From an uncultured delta proteobacterium (lineage in GTDB: Bacteria > Desulfobacterota > Binatia > UBA9968), in NCBI GenBank assembly GCA_963755715.1, contig CAVWLW010000001.1:96001-160000 (forward strand): a stretch of DNA of 64,000 nucleotides, in the 5' to 3' direction. The stretch's first letter is position 1, and each line of letters opens with the position of its first letter. Shown here piece after piece: positions 41,458-64,000 of the stretch. The notes beneath the pieces are model-generated. The model saw nothing but the letters and a program-made list of their open reading frames with translations. It searched no databases and had not been told where the DNA came from. The position numbers were made by a program, and so were the translations under genes.

Positions 41458-42203
41458 CTAAGATTCCCAGCGATAGAGTTGGATTGTAGCGGGCTCGACC
41501 CTCGTATACCAACGCTCCCTCATAATCGGCGACGACGTTCAATTCGATCAATGACCAGCCCGGTACGTTGGCGTCGATCCGCGCCTGTTCGCCGGCTTGC
41601 GGCGAGGCCTATGTTTACCTCATCCAAGTCGCCCGATAGGCCGGTGCCCTTCGCTTTAAGGAACGCTTCCTTGCTCGTCCAACATTTATAAAACGCTTGG
41701 CGGCGCAGGTGCGCCGGCAGGGCGCGCAGCGCGGCTACCTCGCCGGCGGTAAAAAATCGCTCGGCGACTTCATCGAAGGCAAAATCCGCGTTGACAAACT
41801 CGACGTCGATACCGACTTCACGAGAACGAGCTACGGCCAGTAAGGCCACGCCGTGAGAATGAGAAAGGTTGAAGGCAACTCGGCTTTCCGCCTGGGGTGC
41901 GCCTAGTTTTGGTTTGCCGTGGCCGCCGAGGTCGAACTGCAAGTTTCCGGGGAGAGTCTCTGTATATTGCGCCAAGATCGAGCGCAAAGCGGCGTGTGCG
42001 ACCGTGAATAGCAAACGATCTTTGGCAAACTTGAACCTATCGGCGCGAGCCTGTTCTGCAGCCGATAGCAGAGCGGCGTATGCGCCTAAGTTGTCGGCGG
42101 CGGTTTCCGCCGCCTCAATCAGCCAAACATGGATTTCGTTTGCATCCAAAAGGAGACCGGCAGGGGGCGAGCGCCAAACGGATTTGAAAGATTGGTTCGG
42201 CAC
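41458..42203 (-). CDS. Sfp-type 4'-phosphopantetheinyl transferase (3' frameshifts)
   Basis: GKP, FNLSHS, GIDVE, WTSKEAFLKAKGTG. Confidence 0.9.
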
Positions 42204-42488
42204 GGTTCTTCGCAGTACTTTGCTCCGAACGAGCTAAAGATCAAGTTCCCGTCGCAGTCTCTGCCCGACCGCAAGCGACCCGAGATCATTGACTTCCATC
42301 AACGCACCCCCCGGCGGATATCGAAAACCAGCTATCCATCGACAAGCTCTTCAATGACGACAGCGTCGAGCTCTTGGCCAAACTCCGCAGCGGCAGCGCG
42401 TGGCGGTTCAATCCTCACAGTTATGCTATCGGCAGCAGAGCGCCGAAGGTTTACCCGGAATTCAGGATTTGTGGAGCATTATGGGCAA

Positions 42489-42803
42489 TCAGGCGAAATC
42501 TTGGTGTGGCGCGATCCCTGTCACAATCACTTTATCGCCTTCCCGAATGATTTGAAGATCGCACGGGCCGTGGAACAAAATCATCGTGCGGGGATGTTCG
42601 TAAACGGTTGTTTTATGGGGAATCTCTTCGATGTAAACGTCGAACATGCGGCCTGCCGGCAAATTGACGGTCTGAGTGTGCATTAAATCGCCTTCGAAGA
42701 AAACTTCGATCCAGTTGCGATTCTCGGTAACCGCGAGAATGAGACCGGCGGCGTTCTTAATCGTCGCGATCAACTCCTCGCCTTCGATCGTTTGCGCCGC
42801 CAC
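42489..42803 (-). CDS. Hypothetical beta-rich small protein, last gene of the operon
   Basis: 104-aa ORF starting 12 nt after the ligase stop. Confidence 0.7.
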   Translation of the reverse strand: MAAQTIEGEELIATIKNAAGLILAVTENRNWIEVFFEGDLMHTQTVNLPAGRMFDVYIEEIPHKTTVYEHPRTMILFHGPCDLQIIREGDKVIVTGIAPHQDFA

Positions 42804-42815
42804 GGCTAGAATCCG

Positions 42816-44345
42816 TTAATTCGCCAGCAAGGTTTGCGCGTCGCGAATCGATTTGCCGGACGAAGTGCGCGGCAGTGAATCGCGCACGACGATTTTATCC
42901 GGCACTTTGAAATTGGCCAAATTAGCGCGCAAAAACGCCAACAACTCTTTTTCACTGAGGTGCGCGCCGGGACGGGGCACGACGGCGGCACCGATCACCT
43001 GGCCGCGTTTGCCATCCGGTATTGCGAAGACGATATTTTCCTGCACGCCTGGATAAGTATAGATCAGGTTTTCCACTTCAGCGGGGTAAACGTTGAGCCC
43101 GCCGGTGATGATCATGTCGTCGCGCCTGCCGAGATGGTAATAGTAGCCGTCCGTGCCGCGTTTGCCGACGTCGCCGGTATAAAGCCAGCCGTCGCGAACC
43201 CGCTCGGCGGTGGCGTCGGGCCGGCGAAAATAACCTTTCATCACGTGAGGACCGCGGGTGATGATCTCGCCGGGCTCATCGACGCCCAGCTCATTGCCTG
43301 CCTGGTCGATGATCTTAACTTCGACACCCGGCACGGCCCGGCCGATGCTGCCCACTTTTGCTTCGGCCTGGTTCGGCTCTACCAAAGTGATTAGCGGAGA
43401 GGTCTCCGTCAAGCCGTAACCTTGAATGACTTTGATATGCGGCTGGGCAGATTGAAAGGCACGCAAGAGCGGCAGCGGAATGCTGGTGCCCATCATCGCG
43501 GCGATTTTCACGCTGCTGGTATCATAGCTCGCCAGATTTTTTACTCCCATCAAGAGCTGGAAGACGATCGGCACGCTTTCAAAAACACTGACCCGGTATT
43601 TTTGGATGCCCTCCAAAAGCGTGATCGGATTGATCTGATCGAAGATCACCAGCGTGTAACCGCGCTCGGCTAGTTCGTTGCAGACGACTGGCCCGACGAT
43701 ATGCGACATCGGCAAGATACAGCCGCGGATCGTCGATGTGTCGGTGATGCCGAACTCGCCCATCACGCGCGGATACTGGTTGAGATTGCGATAACTCAAC
43801 ACCACGCCTTTGGGCTCGCCGGTGGTGCCCGATGTGTAGAGAATCAATGCGTCGTCGTCGGCTTGCAAGTTTGGCGCAGACACCGTCCCGGCCGATGTCG
43901 CGCGCCGGCTTTCAAAGCTGCGCGTGCCGGTGCCGTTGACAATCCAGGTCGGGATCGACGTGAGTGTTTTAAAATTTTCTTCGACTTCCGAAAATAACTG
44001 GCTGTGCACGATCAGCAAACTCAGATCGGCATCGCTTAAAACCCCTTGCAGCTCTTTTCCCTTGAGCCGGGCGTCGAGGATGACCGTCACCGCGCCGATT
44101 TTCTGCGTCGCGTAATAACTGAGCGGTATCGCCGTGGAATTGGGTAGCAAAAGGCCGACCCGGTCGCCCCGGCGGATGCCTTCCCTTTGCAGATGCGAGG
44201 CCAACGCCTGCGCCTGGTGATTCAACTCGCCAAACGTTAGTTGCTCCTCCTTCGCGATAATCGCGGTTTTTTGCGCTTGACGAGCGGCGGTTTTTTCCAG
44301 AACTTCAGCCGCAAAAAAACCTACTGAATCGGTATGGTTTGCCAT
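42816..44345 (-). CDS. Acyl-CoA synthetase / AMP-dependent ligase
   Basis: YTSGTTGEPKG, QGYGLTE, TGD, GRRDD, GG.NVYP.EVE, PRT.SGK. Confidence 0.92.
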   Translation of the reverse strand: MANHTDSVGFFAAEVLEKTAARQAQKTAIIAKEEQLTFGELNHQAQALASHLQREGIRRGDRVGLLLPNSTAIPLSYYATQKIGAVTVILDARLKGKELQGVLSDADLSLLIVHSQLFSEVEENFKTLTSIPTWIVNGTGTRSFESRRATSAGTVSAPNLQADDDALILYTSGTTGEPKGVVLSYRNLNQYPRVMGEFGITDTSTIRGCILPMSHIVGPVVCNELAERGYTLVIFDQINPITLLEGIQKYRVSVFESVPIVFQLLMGVKNLASYDTSSVKIAAMMGTSIPLPLLRAFQSAQPHIKVIQGYGLTETSPLITLVEPNQAEAKVGSIGRAVPGVEVKIIDQAGNELGVDEPGEIITRGPHVMKGYFRRPDATAERVRDGWLYTGDVGKRGTDGYYYHLGRRDDMIITGGLNVYPAEVENLIYTYPGVQENIVFAIPDGKRGQVIGAAVVPRPGAHLSEKELLAFLRANLANFKVPDKIVVRDSLPRTSSGKSIRDAQTLLAN

Positions 44346-45320
44346 ATTGCAAATGCCCTCTGAAACGGTTTGTACCAGCGCGACAATTGCGCCAGCTCGC
44401 CTCGCTGTAATTTTAATTTTCCTTGCTGGGTCGCCATGAACGCGTCGATGCGATTGTTAAACACCGCGCGCCACCACTCCGCTTGACCGCCGATCAAGAA
44501 CTCACCGCCGTCACCGGGATTGAGTTCGGTAATCGTGCCATCGCGAAATTGCACCGTCCAAGTCTTGCCGCCCTCTTCGAGTAAGAGCGTCAACGAGGTC
44601 GTCAAACTCGTGGCGGCGCCATCGGCACGAAATTGCGAATCCTGATTGGCGCTATCGACCAATGCTTGCATGTGTTCTTGGGAGAATAGCGCATAGCCTT
44701 TTCCCGATTGCACCCCCACCCCAGTCGGCTTTTCTGTCGAATCAGCCGGCGGCGCCCCGCCTTTGCCTACCCGCTCTTTAAAAAATTGGCAATGCACCGC
44801 CTCTTCGAGCAAATCGGTGATCAGAAAGGCTTCCTGAAAATCCTTGCCGATAGCGACGGTGCCGTGTCCTTTGATAATCACCACCGGATGGTATTTGAGC
44901 GCTTCGACGACCGCCTGCGGCCGAGTCACCGTCGGCGTGTCCTGGGGAATGATCGGCACCTCGCCGATCGTATATTTCTCTTCATAGCTAAGCGGCACGA
45001 AGCTTTCATGCGTCAGCGAAAAAGCGAGCACCATGGGCGGGTGGACGTGGACGATCGCCTGCGCGTCGGTGCCGGCGTACACGGCCAGATGCATCGGCGT
45101 TTCACTCGACGCCCGCTGCGCCGTGTTGATCGGTTTGCCGTTCTGATCGAGCGCCACCAAATCCTTGGGCGAAAGAAAACCGAGCGGCGCATGCTGTCCG
45201 GTAATCATGAAACATTTCTTGTCGAGCCGGCAGCTTAGATTACCGCCCCAGCCGCTGACCAGCCGACGCTCAAAGAGCAGCTTGCCCCAGCCGAATCATT
45301 TCGCGTTCGAGGGTAGTCAT
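44321..45320 (-). CDS. Class II aldolase (FucA/Ald2/MtnB-like) fused to C-terminal SCP2 sterol-carrier-like domain; frameshift near 45290
   Basis: GGNLSCR, SSETPMH, VHVHP, KGHG; tail LFS.E.......N.D..F, W...F....DAFMA..QGKLKL.RG. Confidence 0.82.
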
Positions 45321-45323
45321 CGA

Positions 45324-46841
45324 TTAATTCTTGAACAGCGACCAGGGCACTACTTCCGATTCAAGCGGACGAACGGCAACACCCGCAGGGCAGATATCCT
45401 TGCCCAAGAAGGTCGAAACATCGTTGTCGGGAGTCGAAGCTTTGCATGCGTCGCCGTTGAAAAGCTCAATGGCAACGCCGTGCAGGCGCGCCAACTGAAC
45501 GGCGAGCAACGACCCGCAAATCCCGCTTGGCCCCTCCGCCGCTAGGTTTTCGTAAAACAGACACAGCTTGCGAATCTCGCCTTGGGCGAAAAGCGTTCCC
45601 ATGACATTGTCGGAGATCAGGGTCGTCGGCGCGCGACGCTTCAATAGCTCGCGCGCGACCACCTGCGCGCCCCAGAGCTGCGGCCGCATCTCGGGCACGA
45701 GAATGCTTGCGGCTTGCTCCGCCTTCAGGGCGCTCAGCAAAAAGGCATATTGATTCTTCGGCGGCACGCCGTAAATCAGAATATATTTTCCGTCTTCGCT
45801 TGCCTTTTCCGGATCGGGCGTTGCCGCGATCTGATACTTGCGGCGAAAAGTTTCCGGCGTGTAGAGATCATCGAAGCCGATCAGATGGGTAACCAGTCGT
45901 GCCGGCGTGACATCGAACGACGGATAACGCGCGTTGAGAACGGGATCGTCAACGACGGTGATCGGCTGTCCCTGAAACTTCAGCAACTCTGCTACTGGGC
46001 GTTCCTCAATCGGCACATCGATGCCTCGTTCCAACGAGCGCGGATCCTGCACCAATGCATGAAACGGTACGCCGTACTCGCGCGCCATGAGCGCCAGCGG
46101 ATAGGTGCCGACCTTATTGATGATATCGCCGTTTTGCGCCACGCGATCGGCGCCGACGATCACCGCGTTGACTTCACCCGCAGCCATTACCTGTGCCACC
46201 GCGGCATCGGGAATCAGCGACACCGCAACGCCCGCTTGAGCAAGCTCCCAAGCAGTCAAGCGCGCGCCCTGCAGGTAGGGCCGCGTTTCCGTGGCGACCA
46301 CGGAAAACTCTTTGCTCAACTCGCGACAACACTGAGCGACGGCAACCAGCTCACCGCTCACGTTGCAATGCGTCAGCACGCGCGCCGGATTCGGCAATAT
46401 GGCTGCCGCCCGGCGCGCCCGGGCTTGCCGCGCGTGCATGATCTGCTGGCCGAATTCGCGCGCCTGCCTGCCGATAGTCTCGCCGGCGGCGGCGCCGGCA
46501 GGCAATCGGACGAACCATTCGTCAAAGAAACACTCGAGGCCGCGAAAATCGAAGGTCGGCCGGGCGGCGCAAAATTGCTGCGTCATTTCTGCGATGCGCG
46601 CCCGCAGCGCGGCGGCATCGCTGTGCGTATCACGTTGCGCCAACAGCGCGCCGCTATAAAGAAAGGCCAGCACCTGCCCGAAGGCGCGGGTTTTCATTTC
46701 GCGCACGGCGTCGAGCGCTTGCTCGACTTCGCTGATTTGGATGTAGTGGATTTCCTCGGGCACGAGGGTCTCGTCGAGAATCTTAAACCCGTCGCCATCC
46801 CACAACACCGGTTCGAACAACGGACTCGGATTGACATTCAT
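45324..46841 (-). CDS. mtnA: Methylthioribose-1-phosphate isomerase-like protein with C-terminal degenerate domain duplication
   Basis: LDET.VP, ARPT, THCN, ETRPYLQGARLTAWEL, GADR..NGD..NK.GT, PIEER, FDVTP. Confidence 0.85.
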   Translation of the reverse strand: MNVNPSPLFEPVLWDGDGFKILDETLVPEEIHYIQISEVEQALDAVREMKTRAFGQVLAFLYSGALLAQRDTHSDAAALRARIAEMTQQFCAARPTFDFRGLECFFDEWFVRLPAGAAAGETIGRQAREFGQQIMHARQARARRAAAILPNPARVLTHCNVSGELVAVAQCCRELSKEFSVVATETRPYLQGARLTAWELAQAGVAVSLIPDAAVAQVMAAGEVNAVIVGADRVAQNGDIINKVGTYPLALMAREYGVPFHALVQDPRSLERGIDVPIEERPVAELLKFQGQPITVVDDPVLNARYPSFDVTPARLVTHLIGFDDLYTPETFRRKYQIAATPDPEKASEDGKYILIYGVPPKNQYAFLLSALKAEQAASILVPEMRPQLWGAQVVARELLKRRAPTTLISDNVMGTLFAQGEIRKLCLFYENLAAEGPSGICGSLLAVQLARLHGVAIELFNGDACKASTPDNDVSTFLGKDICPAGVAVRPLESEVVPWSLFKN

Positions 46842-46867
46842 AACTTTAACGGGACGCGCGTGGTGGT

Positions 46868-47602
46868 TTACAGATATTGCAACGCCTTGCGCGCCACATC
46901 GATGGTTTTTTTCTCCGCCTCGAAGAACTGCGGATCGCGAAAACCAAACTTGCCGTGGAGACATTCATCGGAGACCGCTAGCACGGCACCGGCCTTCTTG
47001 CCGCGCACCTGCGCGATCGTCAGAAAGGTCGACGTCACCATGTCGATGCTCGAGAGGTTTTGCTCGCTCAATTGCTGAATCAGCTCCGGAGTTTCCTGAA
47101 ACAGCGCGTCGGTGGTGAAGATCCAGCCGAGATGATAGCGCACGTTCAAACTGTCGGCGGCCTTCTTGAGAGCGTCGACAATCTCCGGGTGAGCAATAGT
47201 GGAAAAATTCTCCGCGACATAGTAGCGCGAGGTGCCTTCGCCGCGCAGCGCCCCAGTAACGATCACCAGATCGCCGATGCTTACGTTTTCCTGCAGCGAG
47301 CCGCAACTGCCGACGCGGATCAATGCCTCAGCGCCGGCGCCGCAGAGAATTTCAGTGGTGATCGCCGTATCCGGCGCGTAACGGCCGCCATTGCCGACCG
47401 TGACGCGCTTGCCGTCGAGCGCCCCCGTGTACATCTCGTAATCGAGAAAAGTGAAATTCTTTTGCGGATTTTCCAGCAATCGTAAAATCGCTTCGCTGCG
47501 TTCTTTAGGACCGGGGATCAGCGCGTAAGCGCCGAGGGAGTCCGGCTTGAGACCGAGCATCGACAGCATGCGTTGCGGCGTAAAGTGTGCTTCTTTAAGC
47601 AT
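46868..47602 (-). CDS. Nucleoside phosphorylase (NP-I, uridine/purine phosphorylase family)
   Basis: LIPG...R, IRVGSCGSL, RGEGTS..Y, TTDA.F.E, AVSD. Confidence 0.88.
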   Translation of the reverse strand: MLKEAHFTPQRMLSMLGLKPDSLGAYALIPGPKERSEAILRLLENPQKNFTFLDYEMYTGALDGKRVTVGNGGRYAPDTAITTEILCGAGAEALIRVGSCGSLQENVSIGDLVIVTGALRGEGTSRYYVAENFSTIAHPEIVDALKKAADSLNVRYHLGWIFTTDALFQETPELIQQLSEQNLSSIDMVTSTFLTIAQVRGKKAGAVLAVSDECLHGKFGFRDPQFFEAEKKTIDVARKALQYL

Positions 47603-47604
47603 GA

Positions 47605-48828
47605 TCAGAGCGCCTGATCGATAAATTCGAGCAAATCTTGCGTCGGCAACGCAGGTTCTTTGAGGTCAGCGAAAGACCGCCCGCAGAGCGCGCTCGAGGT
47701 GAGCACGACTTCGGCGCCGGTGGCCGCGGCCTCACGCAAGCGATCGGCGGCGTTCCACTGCGCCAGCTCGGGATCCGCTTCGGGCACTCCACCCCCGCCG
47801 CCGCAGCACCAGCTCCAGCGTCGATTACGTTCCATCTCGACTAGCTCGAGGCCGGGAATCGCGCGAAGAATTCTTCGCGGCGGCTCATAAACGCCGCAGC
47901 CGCGGCCGAGATGGCAGGAGTCGTGGTAGGTGACTTTCTTCTTTATCGGCTTGGTAAATTTTAGAGAACCCGAATCGAGCAGCCGGGCGACATATTCAAT
48001 GCCATGCAGCGCTTCAAATTGGCCAGCGCCGGTCTTGGCGTATTCGCGCCAGATTCGTTGACAACTGCCGCAGGCGACAACCACTTGGGTAATACCGCCG
48101 GCAGCGATTGTCGCCAGATTATTTTCTTTCAAGCGTTCGTACTCGCGACGGAAGCCGAGGTCGAAGGCATAAAGGCCGCAGCATTTTTCCTCGCTGCCGA
48201 GAAAGACAAAATCTTCGCCCGCCTTTTGCATGATCTTGGCGAGCGCGACCGCGCCGCTCCGGCCACTCGAACGATCCGCCGAACAGCCGGCGAAAAGCAA
48301 GGTGCGCGCGTTGGACTCGCCCAGTTTCTTGAGCCCAAGCCCCTCGGCCCAAGCGCCCCGGTCGACCTTTGGCTGCGCCCACGGGTTGTCATGTTGGCGC
48401 AAGCCTTCGTAAATCGGTCGATGCGGCTCGATCGGACCTTCCTTCTCGGTGATCTCCTCGCGCATGGCCACGGTGATATCCCAGGGTCCATAACCGTCGT
48501 CGCGCACGCCGCAAAGTTCCTGGCACATCAGGCAATTCGTGCAGGCGTAGATGACTTCTTTGAGCTCAGGCGTAATCGGATCCAGACCGTGAAAAACCCG
48601 CTGCGCCATCAGCCAGCGCGACTTCGGCGTGTGACGCTGGAAGCGATAAAACTCATAGGGTGGACACTTCTCTTTCGGTCCCACCACATCTTCCATTGGA
48701 TTGGCCGGACCATGGCCGTAACAGGAGCCGCACAGAACGCAGCCGCTGCTGCGCTCGCTCAAATCTTTGGCGTAGAGCCATCTTTTGACCCGTTCGAGCC
48801 CGAGCAATTTTTTCTCTTCGTTTTTCAT
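47605..48828 (-). CDS. Fe-S oxidoreductase with 4Fe-4S motifs and two CCG domains (GlpC/HdrD-like)
   Basis: CVLCGSC..CP, CTNCLMCQELC, EKCCG, TYHDSCHLGR, WCCGGGGG. Confidence 0.9.
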   Translation of the reverse strand: MKNEEKKLLGLERVKRWLYAKDLSERSSGCVLCGSCYGHGPANPMEDVVGPKEKCPPYEFYRFQRHTPKSRWLMAQRVFHGLDPITPELKEVIYACTNCLMCQELCGVRDDGYGPWDITVAMREEITEKEGPIEPHRPIYEGLRQHDNPWAQPKVDRGAWAEGLGLKKLGESNARTLLFAGCSADRSSGRSGAVALAKIMQKAGEDFVFLGSEEKCCGLYAFDLGFRREYERLKENNLATIAAGGITQVVVACGSCQRIWREYAKTGAGQFEALHGIEYVARLLDSGSLKFTKPIKKKVTYHDSCHLGRGCGVYEPPRRILRAIPGLELVEMERNRRWSWCCGGGGGVPEADPELAQWNAADRLREAAATGAEVVLTSSALCGRSFADLKEPALPTQDLLEFIDQAL

Positions 48829-48851
48829 CGAACCGCGTTCAAGCAAAATTA

Positions 48852-48894
48852 GTTAAAGCCTTAACCTTTATAGCTCGCCATTTCGAACTGTCAA
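48852..48894 (-). promoter_or_regulatory. Sigma70 promoter with an inverted repeat over the start site (candidate MarR operator)
   Basis: TTGACA-16-TATAAA; GTTAA-AGCC-TTAAC at 48852-48865. Confidence 0.65.
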
Positions 48895-49005
48895 TAATTG
48901 TCGTTCAAGCGCGCTGCCAGATTGCAAGTCGGCGAAGCGGCGCGAACGGGGTGGTTTAGGCTCGATCCGCTGGAAGTCAGTCGGAAAACGCCGTCGGCGC
49001 TTTAA

Positions 49006-49458
49006 TCAATTCGTCAACGATTCTTGATTGAGCTTGCGCAACAGCGCGGAGAGTTCTTTCTGTTCTGGACCAGCGAGTATTGTGAAGATTTTCGAGACGC
49101 TCGATTCAAAAAGGGGAATCGTACTCTTGTACACCTTGGCCCCTTTGTCGGTCAGCACCACATGCACGACGCGGCGGTCATTTTCGTCGCGCTTGCGCGT
49201 GACCAGCTTTTTCTCTTCGAGACGGTCGACAATGCCGGTGAGATTGCTGACGGTGACCATCATTTTTGCGCCGATCTCGCCGAAGGGCAGTCCACCGGCG
49301 TAGCCGATCGTCGCCAACACGTAAAACTGTGGCGACGTGAGGCCAACTTTGTCTAAATCAGCTTCCAGTTTTTTGTGCGATTGCAGGCTGAAGCGAAGAA
49401 AACGGATCCAAAGGCTAGTTGCATAAGATGTGAAGAACGGACGTTTGTAAACTCTCAC
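49006..49458 (-). CDS. MarR-family transcriptional regulator
   Basis: LTSPQFYVL, SNLTGIVDRLEEK.LV.R...E.DRR....LT.KG. Confidence 0.92.
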   Translation of the reverse strand: MRVYKRPFFTSYATSLWIRFLRFSLQSHKKLEADLDKVGLTSPQFYVLATIGYAGGLPFGEIGAKMMVTVSNLTGIVDRLEEKKLVTRKRDENDRRVVHVVLTDKGAKVYKSTIPLFESSVSKIFTILAGPEQKELSALLRKLNQESLTN

Positions 49459-49612
49459 GCTTTGCACTTTATTCGCACGGCCACTAAAAAGCAACTTCGT
49501 TGGCGCGAGCGCGCGTTCAATAATTATGGACCGGCCCATTTCATTGCAAGCCGTGCGACCGAGTGTTAATGAGTGCAAAAAGAGATCGCTGGCGAGGAAC
49601 TGATAAAGCGCG

Positions 49613-62777: not shown

Positions 62778-63743
62778 TTAGCTCGCCGGTATCTCTGGTT
62801 GCCGTGAATCATAGCGAACCCAACGACTAAATGGGCTGATTTCCTTGTCAAAGATAAATTTGAGCACGAGTCGCGTATAGGACTGGTAGGCAAATAAGGT
62901 CCGGTAAAATTCAGGAGCCATGCGGTAAAGCTGCGGCAGTCTGCTCCACGCGACCATGGGAAAGTCATGATGTTCATTATGAAATCCCATATTGAACATC
63001 ACCCAATTGAGCGGGCCATAATACGAATAGGTCTCTTGCTGTTTGCCCATAACATCATAGTGCTCTTGAATCCAGCGGCCGCCTAACGGATGCAACCCCA
63101 AAGCAAAGAATGTCGAGAGGAGCAAATACATCAGTCCACCCCACCCTACATACAACCAGAGCCAGTAACTCACCCCTAACTGCAAGGCGATATTGGTAAA
63201 CACCCACGGGTCGACAAACGATTGGCCCGGAACCTTTAGTGGCCGCAAGGCTTGCGAGACAGACAACAAAGCGAGCCACAGCGACTTGCGCAGAGGACCA
63301 TGACCAATCAGCCGGCCTTCAAATTGGCTCACCACGTCCGGATCCATCGTTATTTTATTTAGGTGTTGGTGATGCAAAAGATGATACTTTCTGAAACTCA
63401 TAGCGCTGGGGATAATTAAGGCAAAATCACAACTGAGGCCGGCAAGCTTGTTTAACACTGGTATTGCGAAAATTAAGTTGTGCGTTGCCTCATGCATTAA
63501 CACATACAACCCATGATTGAGAACCGCGCCAGCAAGATAAGCCACAGGCAAAATCACGTACCACGGCTGATCGCAAAGCAGCCAGGCCACTGTCCATTGC
63601 AGAGCGACCAGCCCGACAATGAGGAGGGCTGACAGAGGATAAGGGCCAAACAATACCTTCACCTCGGGATAATGTTTAATGATGTCTTTACGGCGTTGGG
63701 TGTGAACCTGCTCAGACTGTCCGTTGATGGTGAAGGAATCCAT
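62778..63743 (-). CDS. Membrane fatty-acid desaturase of the sphingolipid delta-4 desaturase (DES/DEGS) type
   Basis: N-terminal H..RR..I...YPEVK.L.GP; His boxes HEATH, HLLHH, HNEHH; ETYSYYGPLN. Confidence 0.85.
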   Translation of the reverse strand: MDSFTINGQSEQVHTQRRKDIIKHYPEVKVLFGPYPLSALLIVGLVALQWTVAWLLCDQPWYVILPVAYLAGAVLNHGLYVLMHEATHNLIFAIPVLNKLAGLSCDFALIIPSAMSFRKYHLLHHQHLNKITMDPDVVSQFEGRLIGHGPLRKSLWLALLSVSQALRPLKVPGQSFVDPWVFTNIALQLGVSYWLWLYVGWGGLMYLLLSTFFALGLHPLGGRWIQEHYDVMGKQQETYSYYGPLNWVMFNMGFHNEHHDFPMVAWSRLPQLYRMAPEFYRTLFAYQSYTRLVLKFIFDKEISPFSRWVRYDSRQPEIPAS

Positions 63744-64000
63744 AGGAATAGGAATTTTATACCCCTTTTTTCTGAGCTGAGATATAGCGCCAGTGCGCCG
63801 AGCCCGTCAAGCACAGCCGAGAACGCTATAAAAAAGGTAAAAAAACCAGCGTATTTTATCGAAGGTCTTCAGGCAGGTAAACGGAACGCTTCATGATCGG
63901 CGTTCTTTAACCTCTTTCAGCTTGAGTCCCGGCTGCACAAAATCAGGAAACATCGGCCGGAGATTTTTGCTCGGCGGTCCTTGCGGTGAAAGCCGACACC

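Follow-up and report, generated by a model that had tools for sequence, protein, structure and literature searches.

A 64,000-nucleotide stretch of DNA from an uncultured member of the Binatia (GenBank assembly GCA_963755715.1, contig CAVWLW010000001.1, positions 96,001 to 160,000; hereafter the window) carries an operon in which a nucleoside phosphorylase, an MtnA-like isomerase and a class II aldolase, the enzyme types of the dihydroxyacetone phosphate (DHAP) shunt, are encoded together with an SCP2 domain and an AMP-forming ligase, raising the question of which substrate such a combination would serve. A preliminary description of this DNA had proposed the cleavage of a lipophilic nucleoside, adenosylhopane in particular. 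Here, we conclude that the operon is most likely a relative of the DHAP shunt that is specialised and adapted to lipids, the substrate being a hydrophobic carrier of a 5′-deoxyadenosyl group. More specifically, we propose, at a probability of roughly 0.38, that the module releases adenine and DHAP from a hydrophobic 5′-deoxyadenosyl adduct made by a B12-binding radical S-adenosylmethionine (SAM) enzyme.

The source genome encodes a canonical MTAP (C74:85909-86631, 325 bits) and a canonical MtnA (C23:45690-46670, 449 bits) elsewhere, and therefore the triad of the operon, which the preliminary description had recognised correctly, represents a second, specialised set. Similarly, a canonical MtnA scored over the cut-off elsewhere in all five distant cluster-bearing genomes tested, in which the cluster paralogue reached 154-163 bits. 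None of the eight operon proteins, the phosphopantetheinyl transferase (PPTase) included, obtained an equivalog-level name from NCBIfam. The phosphorylase fell below the cut-off of all 14 NCBIfam families that it matched, the MTAP model not being among them, with uridine phosphorylase as the best match (136 bits vs a cut-off of 280), and its closest solved relative was the S. solfataricus 5′-methylthioadenosine (MTA) phosphorylase 1jds (E 2.6e-26). In all 11 aligned cluster-type phosphorylases, D-M-V occupied the position of the E/D-M-E motif found in the five best solved relatives, and the second Glu of this motif presumably contacts the ribose hydroxyls in hexameric purine nucleoside phosphorylases (PNPs). 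As read from the alignment, the D-M-V change may serve as a lead only.

The isomerase comprises an MtnA-like body (residues 1 to ~335) and a degenerate second IF-2B-like half domain (residues ~352-505; window 45327-45791); the earlier assignment as MtnA-like stands, while this C-terminal half domain had been missed. The protein scored 228.6 bits against TIGR00512 (cut-off 279) and 253 bits against PRK05720 (cut-off 271), and its second half alone matched TIGR00512 positions 175-265 (E 9.6e-6), forming a ~150-residue repeat of the IF-2B Rossmann half. Within the body, the THCN Cys and the GADR/NGD Asp, which we take to be catalytic, were invariant in nine of nine aligned sequences. In the distant clusters described below, the extra half domain is a gene of its own, encoding 149-161 residues between mtnA and the aldolase gene, and these stand-alone proteins (L100:10022-10471, L121:9104-9562 and L140:12980-13465) matched no Pfam family. 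The occurrence of this domain as a fusion in Binatia and as a separate adjoining gene in the distant clusters suggests that both parts work together.

By sequence, the SCP2 part of the window aldolase remained below the Pfam threshold (E 0.014; 16.2 bits vs a cut-off of 21.3), although, at E <= 1, 16 of the 17 homologues did match the Pfam SCP2 model (best E 2.4e-6) and a profile built from the domain matched the solved SCP2 protein 2cx7 at E 3.1e-5. We therefore turn to the fold, for which an AlphaFold2 model of the fusion protein was available (mean pLDDT 85.2, pTM 0.74). In this model, residues 201-322 superimposed on the T. thermophilus SCP2 protein 2cx7 with a Z score of 18.3 and a root-mean-square deviation (r.m.s.d.) of 1.7 over 120 residues, and four further SCP2 entries gave Z scores of about 10, so that the predicted structure confirms the SCP2 fold of the C-terminal domain. 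Residues 1-181, separated from it by a disordered linker (178-197), matched the aldolase FucA (2fk5; Z 25.7, r.m.s.d. 1.9 over 176 residues), and the 5-deoxyribose-pathway aldolase of B. thuringiensis (6btd/6btg) was also among the fold matches, which identifies the modelled N-terminal domain, at the level of fold and family, as a class II (metal-dependent) aldolase. The aldolase-SCP2 fusion of the preliminary description is thus upheld by fold, with two corrections: its match by sequence is sub-threshold, and the window gene is frameshifted.

The frameshift consists of a 1-nt insertion near 45294 (within 45285-45298) that splits off the first 12 codons, which lie in another frame and begin at the ATG at 45320; intact relatives of 330-334 residues read through. 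The extra letter at 45294 was absent from the contigs of all four sequencing runs aligned (X1, X2, X3 and X15; three DNA runs, each from a different study, and one RNA-library run), which were 95-100% alike to the window, suggesting that the frameshift either arose in assembly or is a lesion private to this strain. The 189-nt contig X15, from a soil metatranscriptome library, covers 45207-45395, and thereby both the stop of mtnA and the start of the aldolase gene, with a similarity of 95-99%; it establishes presence in an RNA library only and is a weak hint of expression, DNA carry-over being possible. As a separate observation, the source genome gave 20 matches to a class II aldolase query and its genus relatives 7-22, an unusual expansion of this family.

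An alignment of the extra isomerase domain, searched against genomes of 185,579 species, retrieved 59 loci, nearly all labelled Candidatus Binatia or with older deltaproteobacterial names. Conserved synteny, which the preliminary description had named as a check, was evident: the gene order recurs in these loci far beyond chance. When only loci with enough flanking sequence were counted for each gene, pnp was present in 53/53, the aldolase gene in 58/58, its SCP2 part in 55/58, the ligase gene in 48/50, marR upstream of the cluster in 45/46, ccg in 45/51 and the small open reading frame (ORF) in 28/44, and a PPTase gene lay within 7 kb in 22/36. A sample of 41 relatives' genomes was assembled that includes the source genome, is divided into lineages g1-g5 and counts the unpublished G005 in every tally. 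In this sample, the fusion was found in 24 of the 25 genus genomes (source genome included; the exception is G018) and in G031. G005 contains the fusion, the radical-SAM gene, the CCG protein and the FAD protein, and lacks HpnH and SHC. G025 and G029 carry the order marR-pnp-long mtnA-aldolase (without SCP2)-ligase, and genus g3 has pnp plus a short aldolase at most. Because an MBL-fold gene and a D-Ala-D-Ala carboxypeptidase gene flanking the operon are likewise conserved, synteny within the genus is weak evidence by itself, and greater weight falls on the cases from other families and lineages. Near-identical DNA (at least 80% of sampled words) occurred in 14 sequencing runs from nine studies, labelled soil, mine or rhizosphere metagenome.

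Such cross-lineage cases came from a search of the aldolase-SCP2 protein of the most divergent locus, L100, against 301 genomes of its phylum, which yielded full-length fusions in 13 genomes at 35-47% identity and 32-54% GC, the SCP2 fusion being retained down to 35% identity. These clusters, among which anaerobe-type enzymes are encoded, namely aldehyde:ferredoxin oxidoreductase (AOR) and a glycyl-radical enzyme, occur in small-genome lineages and repeat a pattern of genes for an HAE3/MMPL RND protein, a B12-binding radical-SAM enzyme (~486 residues), the phosphorylase, MtnA, the extra-domain protein and the aldolase-SCP2 fusion, continued by an aldehyde dehydrogenase (ALDH), LolA-like and DUF1302 genes, and between one and three AMP-ligases. 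In L100, L121, L122, L123, L125 and L127, the gene immediately after that of the aldolase encodes the ALDH, its domain being confirmed by Pfam in all but L123, and L100 additionally contains a nearby AOR and a transporter of the MFS type. The accessible parts of papers on DUF1302/DUF1329 concern the handling of fatty acids, alcohols and monoterpenes. With regard to the earlier proposal of a lipid substrate whose aldehyde is converted to an acid and a thioester, the ALDH or AOR, the AMP-ligases and the RND, LolA-like and DUF1302 genes beside the distant aldolase fit; the role of oxidant given to the CCG protein does not.

The recurring partner in these clusters is the radical-SAM gene, which abuts pnp in L121, L127, L129, L130, L140 and G276:C58 (L123) and lies one gene off in L125. 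Among the 301 genomes, the fusion was present in 13, an orthologue of the radical-SAM enzyme (E <= 1e-100) in 14, and both in 12, with G076 having only the fusion and G066 and G158 only the radical-SAM gene; a further 18 genomes contain paralogues at 31-35% identity. Binatia have an orthologue too, at C21:27896-29374 in the source genome, with 36-41% identity to the distant ones and with a lineage distribution (g1 21/24, g2 2/2, g5 2/2, g3 0/11, g4 0/1) that follows the operon: the two agree in 38 of 41 genomes (25 with both, 13 with neither), and G018 lacks both. The match in G025, at only 45% identity, is possibly a paralogue. In Binatia, the gene belongs to a conserved module with an SDR, a GlcD-like FAD_binding_4 protein, a TenA/PQQC-like protein and an O-methyltransferase, whereas in G029 (g2) it stands without those module neighbours. 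The TenA/PQQC-like neighbour was considered as an UndA-like alkene former and rejected, its matches to solved chains being at chance level (one TENA/THI-4 chain at E 0.3). The enzyme's best NCBIfam match was BchE (160-222 bits vs a cut-off of 481), and its solved relatives were distant only (AprD4 at 1.9e-8, OxsB and CysS). Through the adjacency to pnp, the co-occurrence in 12 genomes and the matching lineage pattern in Binatia, radical-SAM adenosyl adducts, listed in the preliminary description among several alternatives, have become the best supported of them.

Taking these observations together, we speculate on the following route. The radical-SAM enzyme would put the 5′-deoxyadenosyl group on a hydrophobic molecule, as HpnH does in forming adenosylhopane and MqnE in forming aminofutalosine; the phosphorylase would then take off the base to leave a 1-phospho-sugar, which the MtnA-like isomerase, aided by its extra half domain, would turn into a 1-phospho-ketose. 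The class II aldolase would cut between C3′ and C4′, releasing DHAP and an aldehyde that keeps ribose C4′-C5′ on the hydrophobic part, with the fused SCP2 domain holding this part during the step. The aldehyde would be oxidised to the acid by ALDH or AOR in the distant clusters and by an enzyme unlinked to the operon in Binatia, the AMP-ligase would convert the acid to a thioester, and MarR would regulate the operon. We favour radical adenosylation because it is the simplest mechanism that makes use of the second shunt, the SCP2 domain, the oxidising and activating enzymes, the transporters and the tie to the radical-SAM gene.

Several points weigh against this proposal. B12-binding-class radical-SAM enzymes usually release plain 5′-deoxyadenosine, and, to our knowledge, neither of the known adenosylating radical-SAM enzymes, HpnH and MqnE, is of the B12-binding class. 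The best named matches of the enzyme, BchE, HpnJ, HpnR and P-methylases, are all below cut-off. In Binatia, its gene lies outside the operon, and the operon occurs without a radical-SAM match in G001 and G002 (65% and 84% complete, respectively), with the reverse in G033. The E <= 1e-100 cut was chosen post hoc at a gap in E values (7e-112 vs 7e-66), and the co-occurrence counts come from related, non-independent genomes and are descriptive only. Moreover, in G076 (L128) and G330 (L131), the aldolase-SCP2 fusion and a ligase are found with neither pnp nor mtnA nearby, suggesting that the fusion can serve another upstream route. Lastly, gene content, folds, conservation, co-occurrence and adjacency are what we observe; the individual reactions, the nature of the substrate and the ability of the radical-SAM enzyme to adenosylate it are all inferred from these.

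The main rival reading, which we consider somewhat less probable than our proposal, is the dedicated clean-up of plain 5′-deoxyadenosine (or MTA), in the manner of the Drd pathway or the DHAP shunt, in the service of a very active radical-SAM enzyme; the products would be adenine, DHAP and acetaldehyde (or methylthioacetaldehyde), the latter oxidised by ALDH or AOR, and SCP2 would merely tether the aldolase to a lipid-handling complex or to the membrane. The B12-binding class of the partner, which normally releases 5′-deoxyadenosine, speaks for it, as do 6btd/6btg among the fold matches of the aldolase and an MTA phosphorylase as the closest solved relative of the phosphorylase. Since Bacillus thuringiensis contains separate, paralogous isomerases for MTA and for 5-deoxyribose, the presence of an additional MtnA does not by itself establish a novel substrate. 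The triad is itself the known DHAP shunt, as far as the accessible parts of the relevant papers go (PMC12632272, PMC10986504). Clean-up would account for the triad and for a radical-SAM partner. However, it leaves unexplained why the SCP2 fusion is kept at 35% identity, why the isomerase has an extra half domain, why a long-chain/aryl-type ligase and transporters for hydrophobic compounds are present, and why the operon is tied to one radical-SAM family among many, and the canonical MTAP and MtnA are already there. Another reading is ordinary nucleoside or pentose catabolism, in which ribose-1-phosphate would be converted via ribulose-1-phosphate to DHAP and glycolaldehyde, as in halophiles, with the CCG protein as a GlcF-like subunit of a glycolate oxidase. 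The aldolase does match a haloarchaeal ribulose-1-phosphate aldolase model (E 2.4e-15), uridine phosphorylase is the best match of the phosphorylase (136 vs 280 bits) and the CCG protein matches GlcF (6.3e-8), but all scores lie far under the curated cut-offs, the SCP2 domain, ligase, transporters and radical-SAM link would have no explanation, and the CCG gene was not found in g2 or the distant clusters; we consider this reading very improbable.

The substrate could also be an exogenous lipophilic nucleoside from soil, including adenosylhopane, which would be degraded through the C32 aldehyde and acid to the CoA ester. MarR control and a catabolic-looking ligase would suit such a diet, as would the RND, LolA-like and DUF1302 genes of uptake or efflux type and the MFS transporter of the distant clusters; near-identical DNA was present in soil, mine and rhizosphere runs, and the absence of hpnH is compatible with feeding on the hopanoids of others. 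Nevertheless, HpnH exceeded the cut-off in only 2 of the 41 relatives and SHC in 5, whereas 24 of the 25 genus genomes contain the fusion, and both HpnH and SHC were undetected in 97-99% complete genomes bearing the operon. The co-occurrence with shc and hpnH suggested in the preliminary description as a check is therefore negative, the operon being near-universal in the genus. Membership in the HpnG family fails as well, the phosphorylase reaching 24.9 bits on the HpnG model TIGR03468 against a cut-off of 187.1. The rarity of HpnH and SHC together with the failed HpnG model argues that endogenous adenosylhopane is not the substrate, and exogenous hopanoids are without support in that role. 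In addition, the tie to an endogenous radical-SAM enzyme and the biosynthetic-looking islands of G185 and G246 (a ketosynthase (KS) pair, cyclases and a ketoreductase (KR)) point to an internal substrate. We thus regard an exogenous nucleoside as improbable and adenosylhopane specifically, the version put forward earlier, as scarcely credible, and an attractive connection to C32 hopanoids that lacked support is thereby withdrawn.

The source genome does have a hopanoid locus, on contig C69, with hpnH, shc and an hpnG-like gene (L041:3662-4408). Between its hpnH/hpnA-like genes and its GT2, hpnG-like, shc and sqs genes sits a gene for a 1328-residue protein (L040:13905-17891, minus strand) composed of an FGGY kinase, a D-2-hydroxyacid dehydrogenase, an SCP2 domain and a class II aldolase. 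Judged from its domains, this protein could, on paper, phosphorylate, oxidise and cleave a polyol side chain, for example that of bacteriohopanetetrol. As a conserved hopanoid gene it was rejected, being absent from the hopanoid locus of G011, the sole other such locus examined.

Compared with the known DHAP shunt (MtnP or MtnN plus MtnK, MtnA and Ald2; DrdK-DrdI-DrdA), the operon unites the same families, PF01048, PF01008 and PF00596, has an aldolase fold matching FucA-type aldolases as well as 6btd/6btg and would be expected to yield a base, DHAP and an aldehyde. By contrast, its aldolase is fused to SCP2, its isomerase, which falls short of the MtnA cut-offs, contains or is accompanied by an extra half domain, its phosphorylase is of the hexameric PNP/uridine phosphorylase (UP) type with D-M-V for E/D-M-E, its constant neighbour is a ligase in Binatia and an ALDH in the distant clusters, and canonical MTAP and MtnA coexist with it. 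The proposed logic also resembles the futalosine route to menaquinone, in which the adenosyl radical addition by MqnE is followed by a PNP_UDP_1-family enzyme (MqnB/MTAN). In that route, ribose C1′-C3′ is later lost and C4′-C5′ is retained; trimming would be done here by isomerase and aldolase and there, as we understand it, by MqnC and MqnD. Near the operon, no Mqn genes were found, none having been specifically examined. A further precedent is the conversion of adenosylhopane to ribosylhopane by HpnH and HpnG, in which radical-SAM adenosylation of a lipid precedes base removal by a PNP-family enzyme, as described in the accessible sections of a 2026 review (PMC13459092). Unlike there, the phosphorylase here is not HpnG, the partner is of the B12-binding class and not HpnH (TIGR03470), HpnH/SHC co-occurrence is absent, and only two ribose carbons would remain, whereas there the ribose persists as a C5 side chain.

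In those sections, HpnH is the only lipid adenosylase among the lipid-modifying radical-SAM enzymes treated, and the words "aldolase" and "adenosylation" have no occurrences in the review (PMC13459092). In the main articles searched, we found no description of an SCP2-class II aldolase combination and, as far as their accessible text goes, no relevant description of adenosylhopane together with an aldolase. Titles and abstract openings of the DHAP-shunt literature mentioned no lipid variant, and a query combining radical SAM, phosphorylase, aldolase, isomerase and lipid surfaced only a methionine-salvage review, so that the module appears undescribed in the literature searched, to the extent of the text accessible there. 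Should the substrate be an adenosylated hydrophobic molecule, SAM would have a new use as a recyclable two-carbon donor, radical-SAM chemistry would gain a new class and a ready enzyme set would be at hand. A bolder possibility, somewhat less probable than our main proposal, is that the B12-binding family joins HpnH and MqnE as a third type of radical adenosylase, and that SAM supplies C2 units for building or activating a starter of lipid or polyketide type, both in Binatia and in several anaerobic lineages. Even on a conservative reading, the operon represents an unrecognised, widely conserved DHAP-shunt variant, distinguished by the fusion of its aldolase to SCP2, by an isomerase in two parts and by a changed site in its phosphorylase.

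The features of the operon are listed in Table 1. The co-directional run from MarR through the CCG protein, phosphorylase, isomerase, aldolase-SCP2 fusion and ligase to the small protein was recovered as first described, making eight genes with the PPTase. The described spacing, below 30 nt or overlapping from ccg to the small protein, agrees with the coordinates: the gaps are 2 nt (ccg-pnp), 26 nt (pnp-mtnA), 3 nt (mtnA-aldolase) and 12 nt (ligase-small ORF), the aldolase and ligase genes overlap by 25 nt, and the PPTase gene, placed earlier about 290 nt further on, follows after 285 nt. The extended marR ORF would overlap the divergent MBL-fold gene.

Table 1 Genes of the operon and its accessory neighbour in the window.
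Feature	Position	Strand	Remarks
MarR-family regulator	49006-49539	minus	start uncertain (ORF to 49665); PF01047 E 4.6e-17
Fe-S protein, Fer4_8 + 2 CCG domains	47605-48846	minus	PF02754 E 8.1e-29 (2 stretches), PF13183
Nucleoside phosphorylase, hexameric PNP/UP/MTAP-I type, distinct subfamily	46868-47602	minus	PF01048 E 5.1e-33
MtnA-like isomerase, 505 residues	45324-46841 (ORF to 46964; likely start 46841)	minus	PF01008 E 2e-55, 2 stretches
Class II aldolase (N-terminal)-SCP2 (44324-44698) fusion	44321-45320 (window ORF 44321-45208)	minus	PF00596 E 2.1e-39
AMP-forming acyl/aryl-CoA (or acyl-AMP) ligase	42816-44345	minus	PF00501 E 1.6e-84, PF13193
Small conserved protein, 104 residues	42489-42803	minus	no Pfam or NCBIfam match
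Sfp/HetI-type 4′-phosphopantetheinyl transferase, accessory neighbour	41520-42203	minus	PF01648 E 9.6e-17, PF22624 E 1e-7

The ligase best matched the long-chain-fatty-acid-CoA ligase PRK06187 in NCBIfam (420 bits vs a cut-off of 476). Its best solved relatives were the feruloyl-/fatty-acyl-CoA synthetase 8wev/8weu and FadD13, and among solved chains it is closer to long-chain or aryl acid ligases than to acetyl-CoA synthetase (264 vs 149 bits). The CCG protein has an HdrD/GlcF/GlpC/TfrB-like architecture of a Fer4 dicluster and two CCG domains, from which it is probably an electron-transfer subunit; its best NCBIfam match was TfrB (138 bits vs a cut-off of 385), with GlcF as a weak match. The gene was found in 21/24 genomes of g1, 2/2 of g5, 0/2 of g2, 0/11 of g3 and 0/1 of g4, and in none of the distant clusters. 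Its earlier assignment as the aldehyde oxidase is not borne out: the gene was added in certain lineages only, its product falls into none of the aldehyde-oxidising families, and ALDH or AOR take that place in the distant clusters. The CCG protein shares its lineage pattern with the GlcD/YdiJ-like FAD_binding_4 protein encoded next to the radical-SAM gene, and a reasonable guess, resting on one or two evolutionary events, is that the two form a split FAD + Fe-S dehydrogenase. Such a pair would recall the GlcDEF/YdiJ-type dehydrogenases in its Fer4 + 2xCCG layout and GlcD/YdiJ-like partner, and differ from them in that the CCG and FAD genes lie in different loci and score far below the equivalog cut-offs. 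The small protein has invariant His/Cys/Glu positions in an alignment of relatives and gave no usable Atlas match. The PPTase, with ACPS and AASDHPPT_N domains, scored 174 bits against HetI (cut-off 370); its inclusion as a fixed, core member of the operon was rejected, given its presence within 7 kb in 22/36 loci only. An ACPS-type PPTase gene (L125:7747-8085) lies between pnp and mtnA in L125.

Several gene groups around these clusters were also recorded. L128 and L131 represent a second cluster type, with MMPL, LolA-like, DUF1302, zinc alcohol dehydrogenase (Zn-ADH), DeoC-like aldolase, aldolase-SCP2, ligase, phosphomutase and LpxL-like genes. The source genome has adjoining DeoC-like and Zn-ADH genes on C42 (L134:8700-10630), 55-57% identical to those of this type and near another class II aldolase gene, a BNR protein gene and AOR fragments. 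About 13 kb upstream of the operon, a lipid-gene group (window 62778-64000 and beyond; C1:158778-167104; L135) encodes a fatty-acid/sphingolipid-type desaturase, an LpxL-like acyltransferase, two CDP-alcohol phosphatidyltransferases and a 380-residue protein belonging to no family, the last of which shares 33% identity, along its entire length, with the protein encoded after the ligase gene in the distant cluster L121. LpxL-like acyltransferase genes also follow the ligase gene in L091, L128 and L131.

The islands L136, L138 and L139 (G246:C2, G185:C4) contain two paralogues of the cluster radical-SAM enzyme together with a KS pair, two cyclase-type genes and a KR, and further Amidohydro_2, CrtI-like flavoprotein, FMN reductase, AOR and ApbA-like reductase genes and a small Fer4-type radical-SAM gene, which may be read as encoding a glycyl-radical activase. 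Their gene types recall the ladderane-type lipid clusters proposed in the accessible sections of the review (PMC13459092). A glycyl-radical enzyme is encoded in the G185 island (L139) only.

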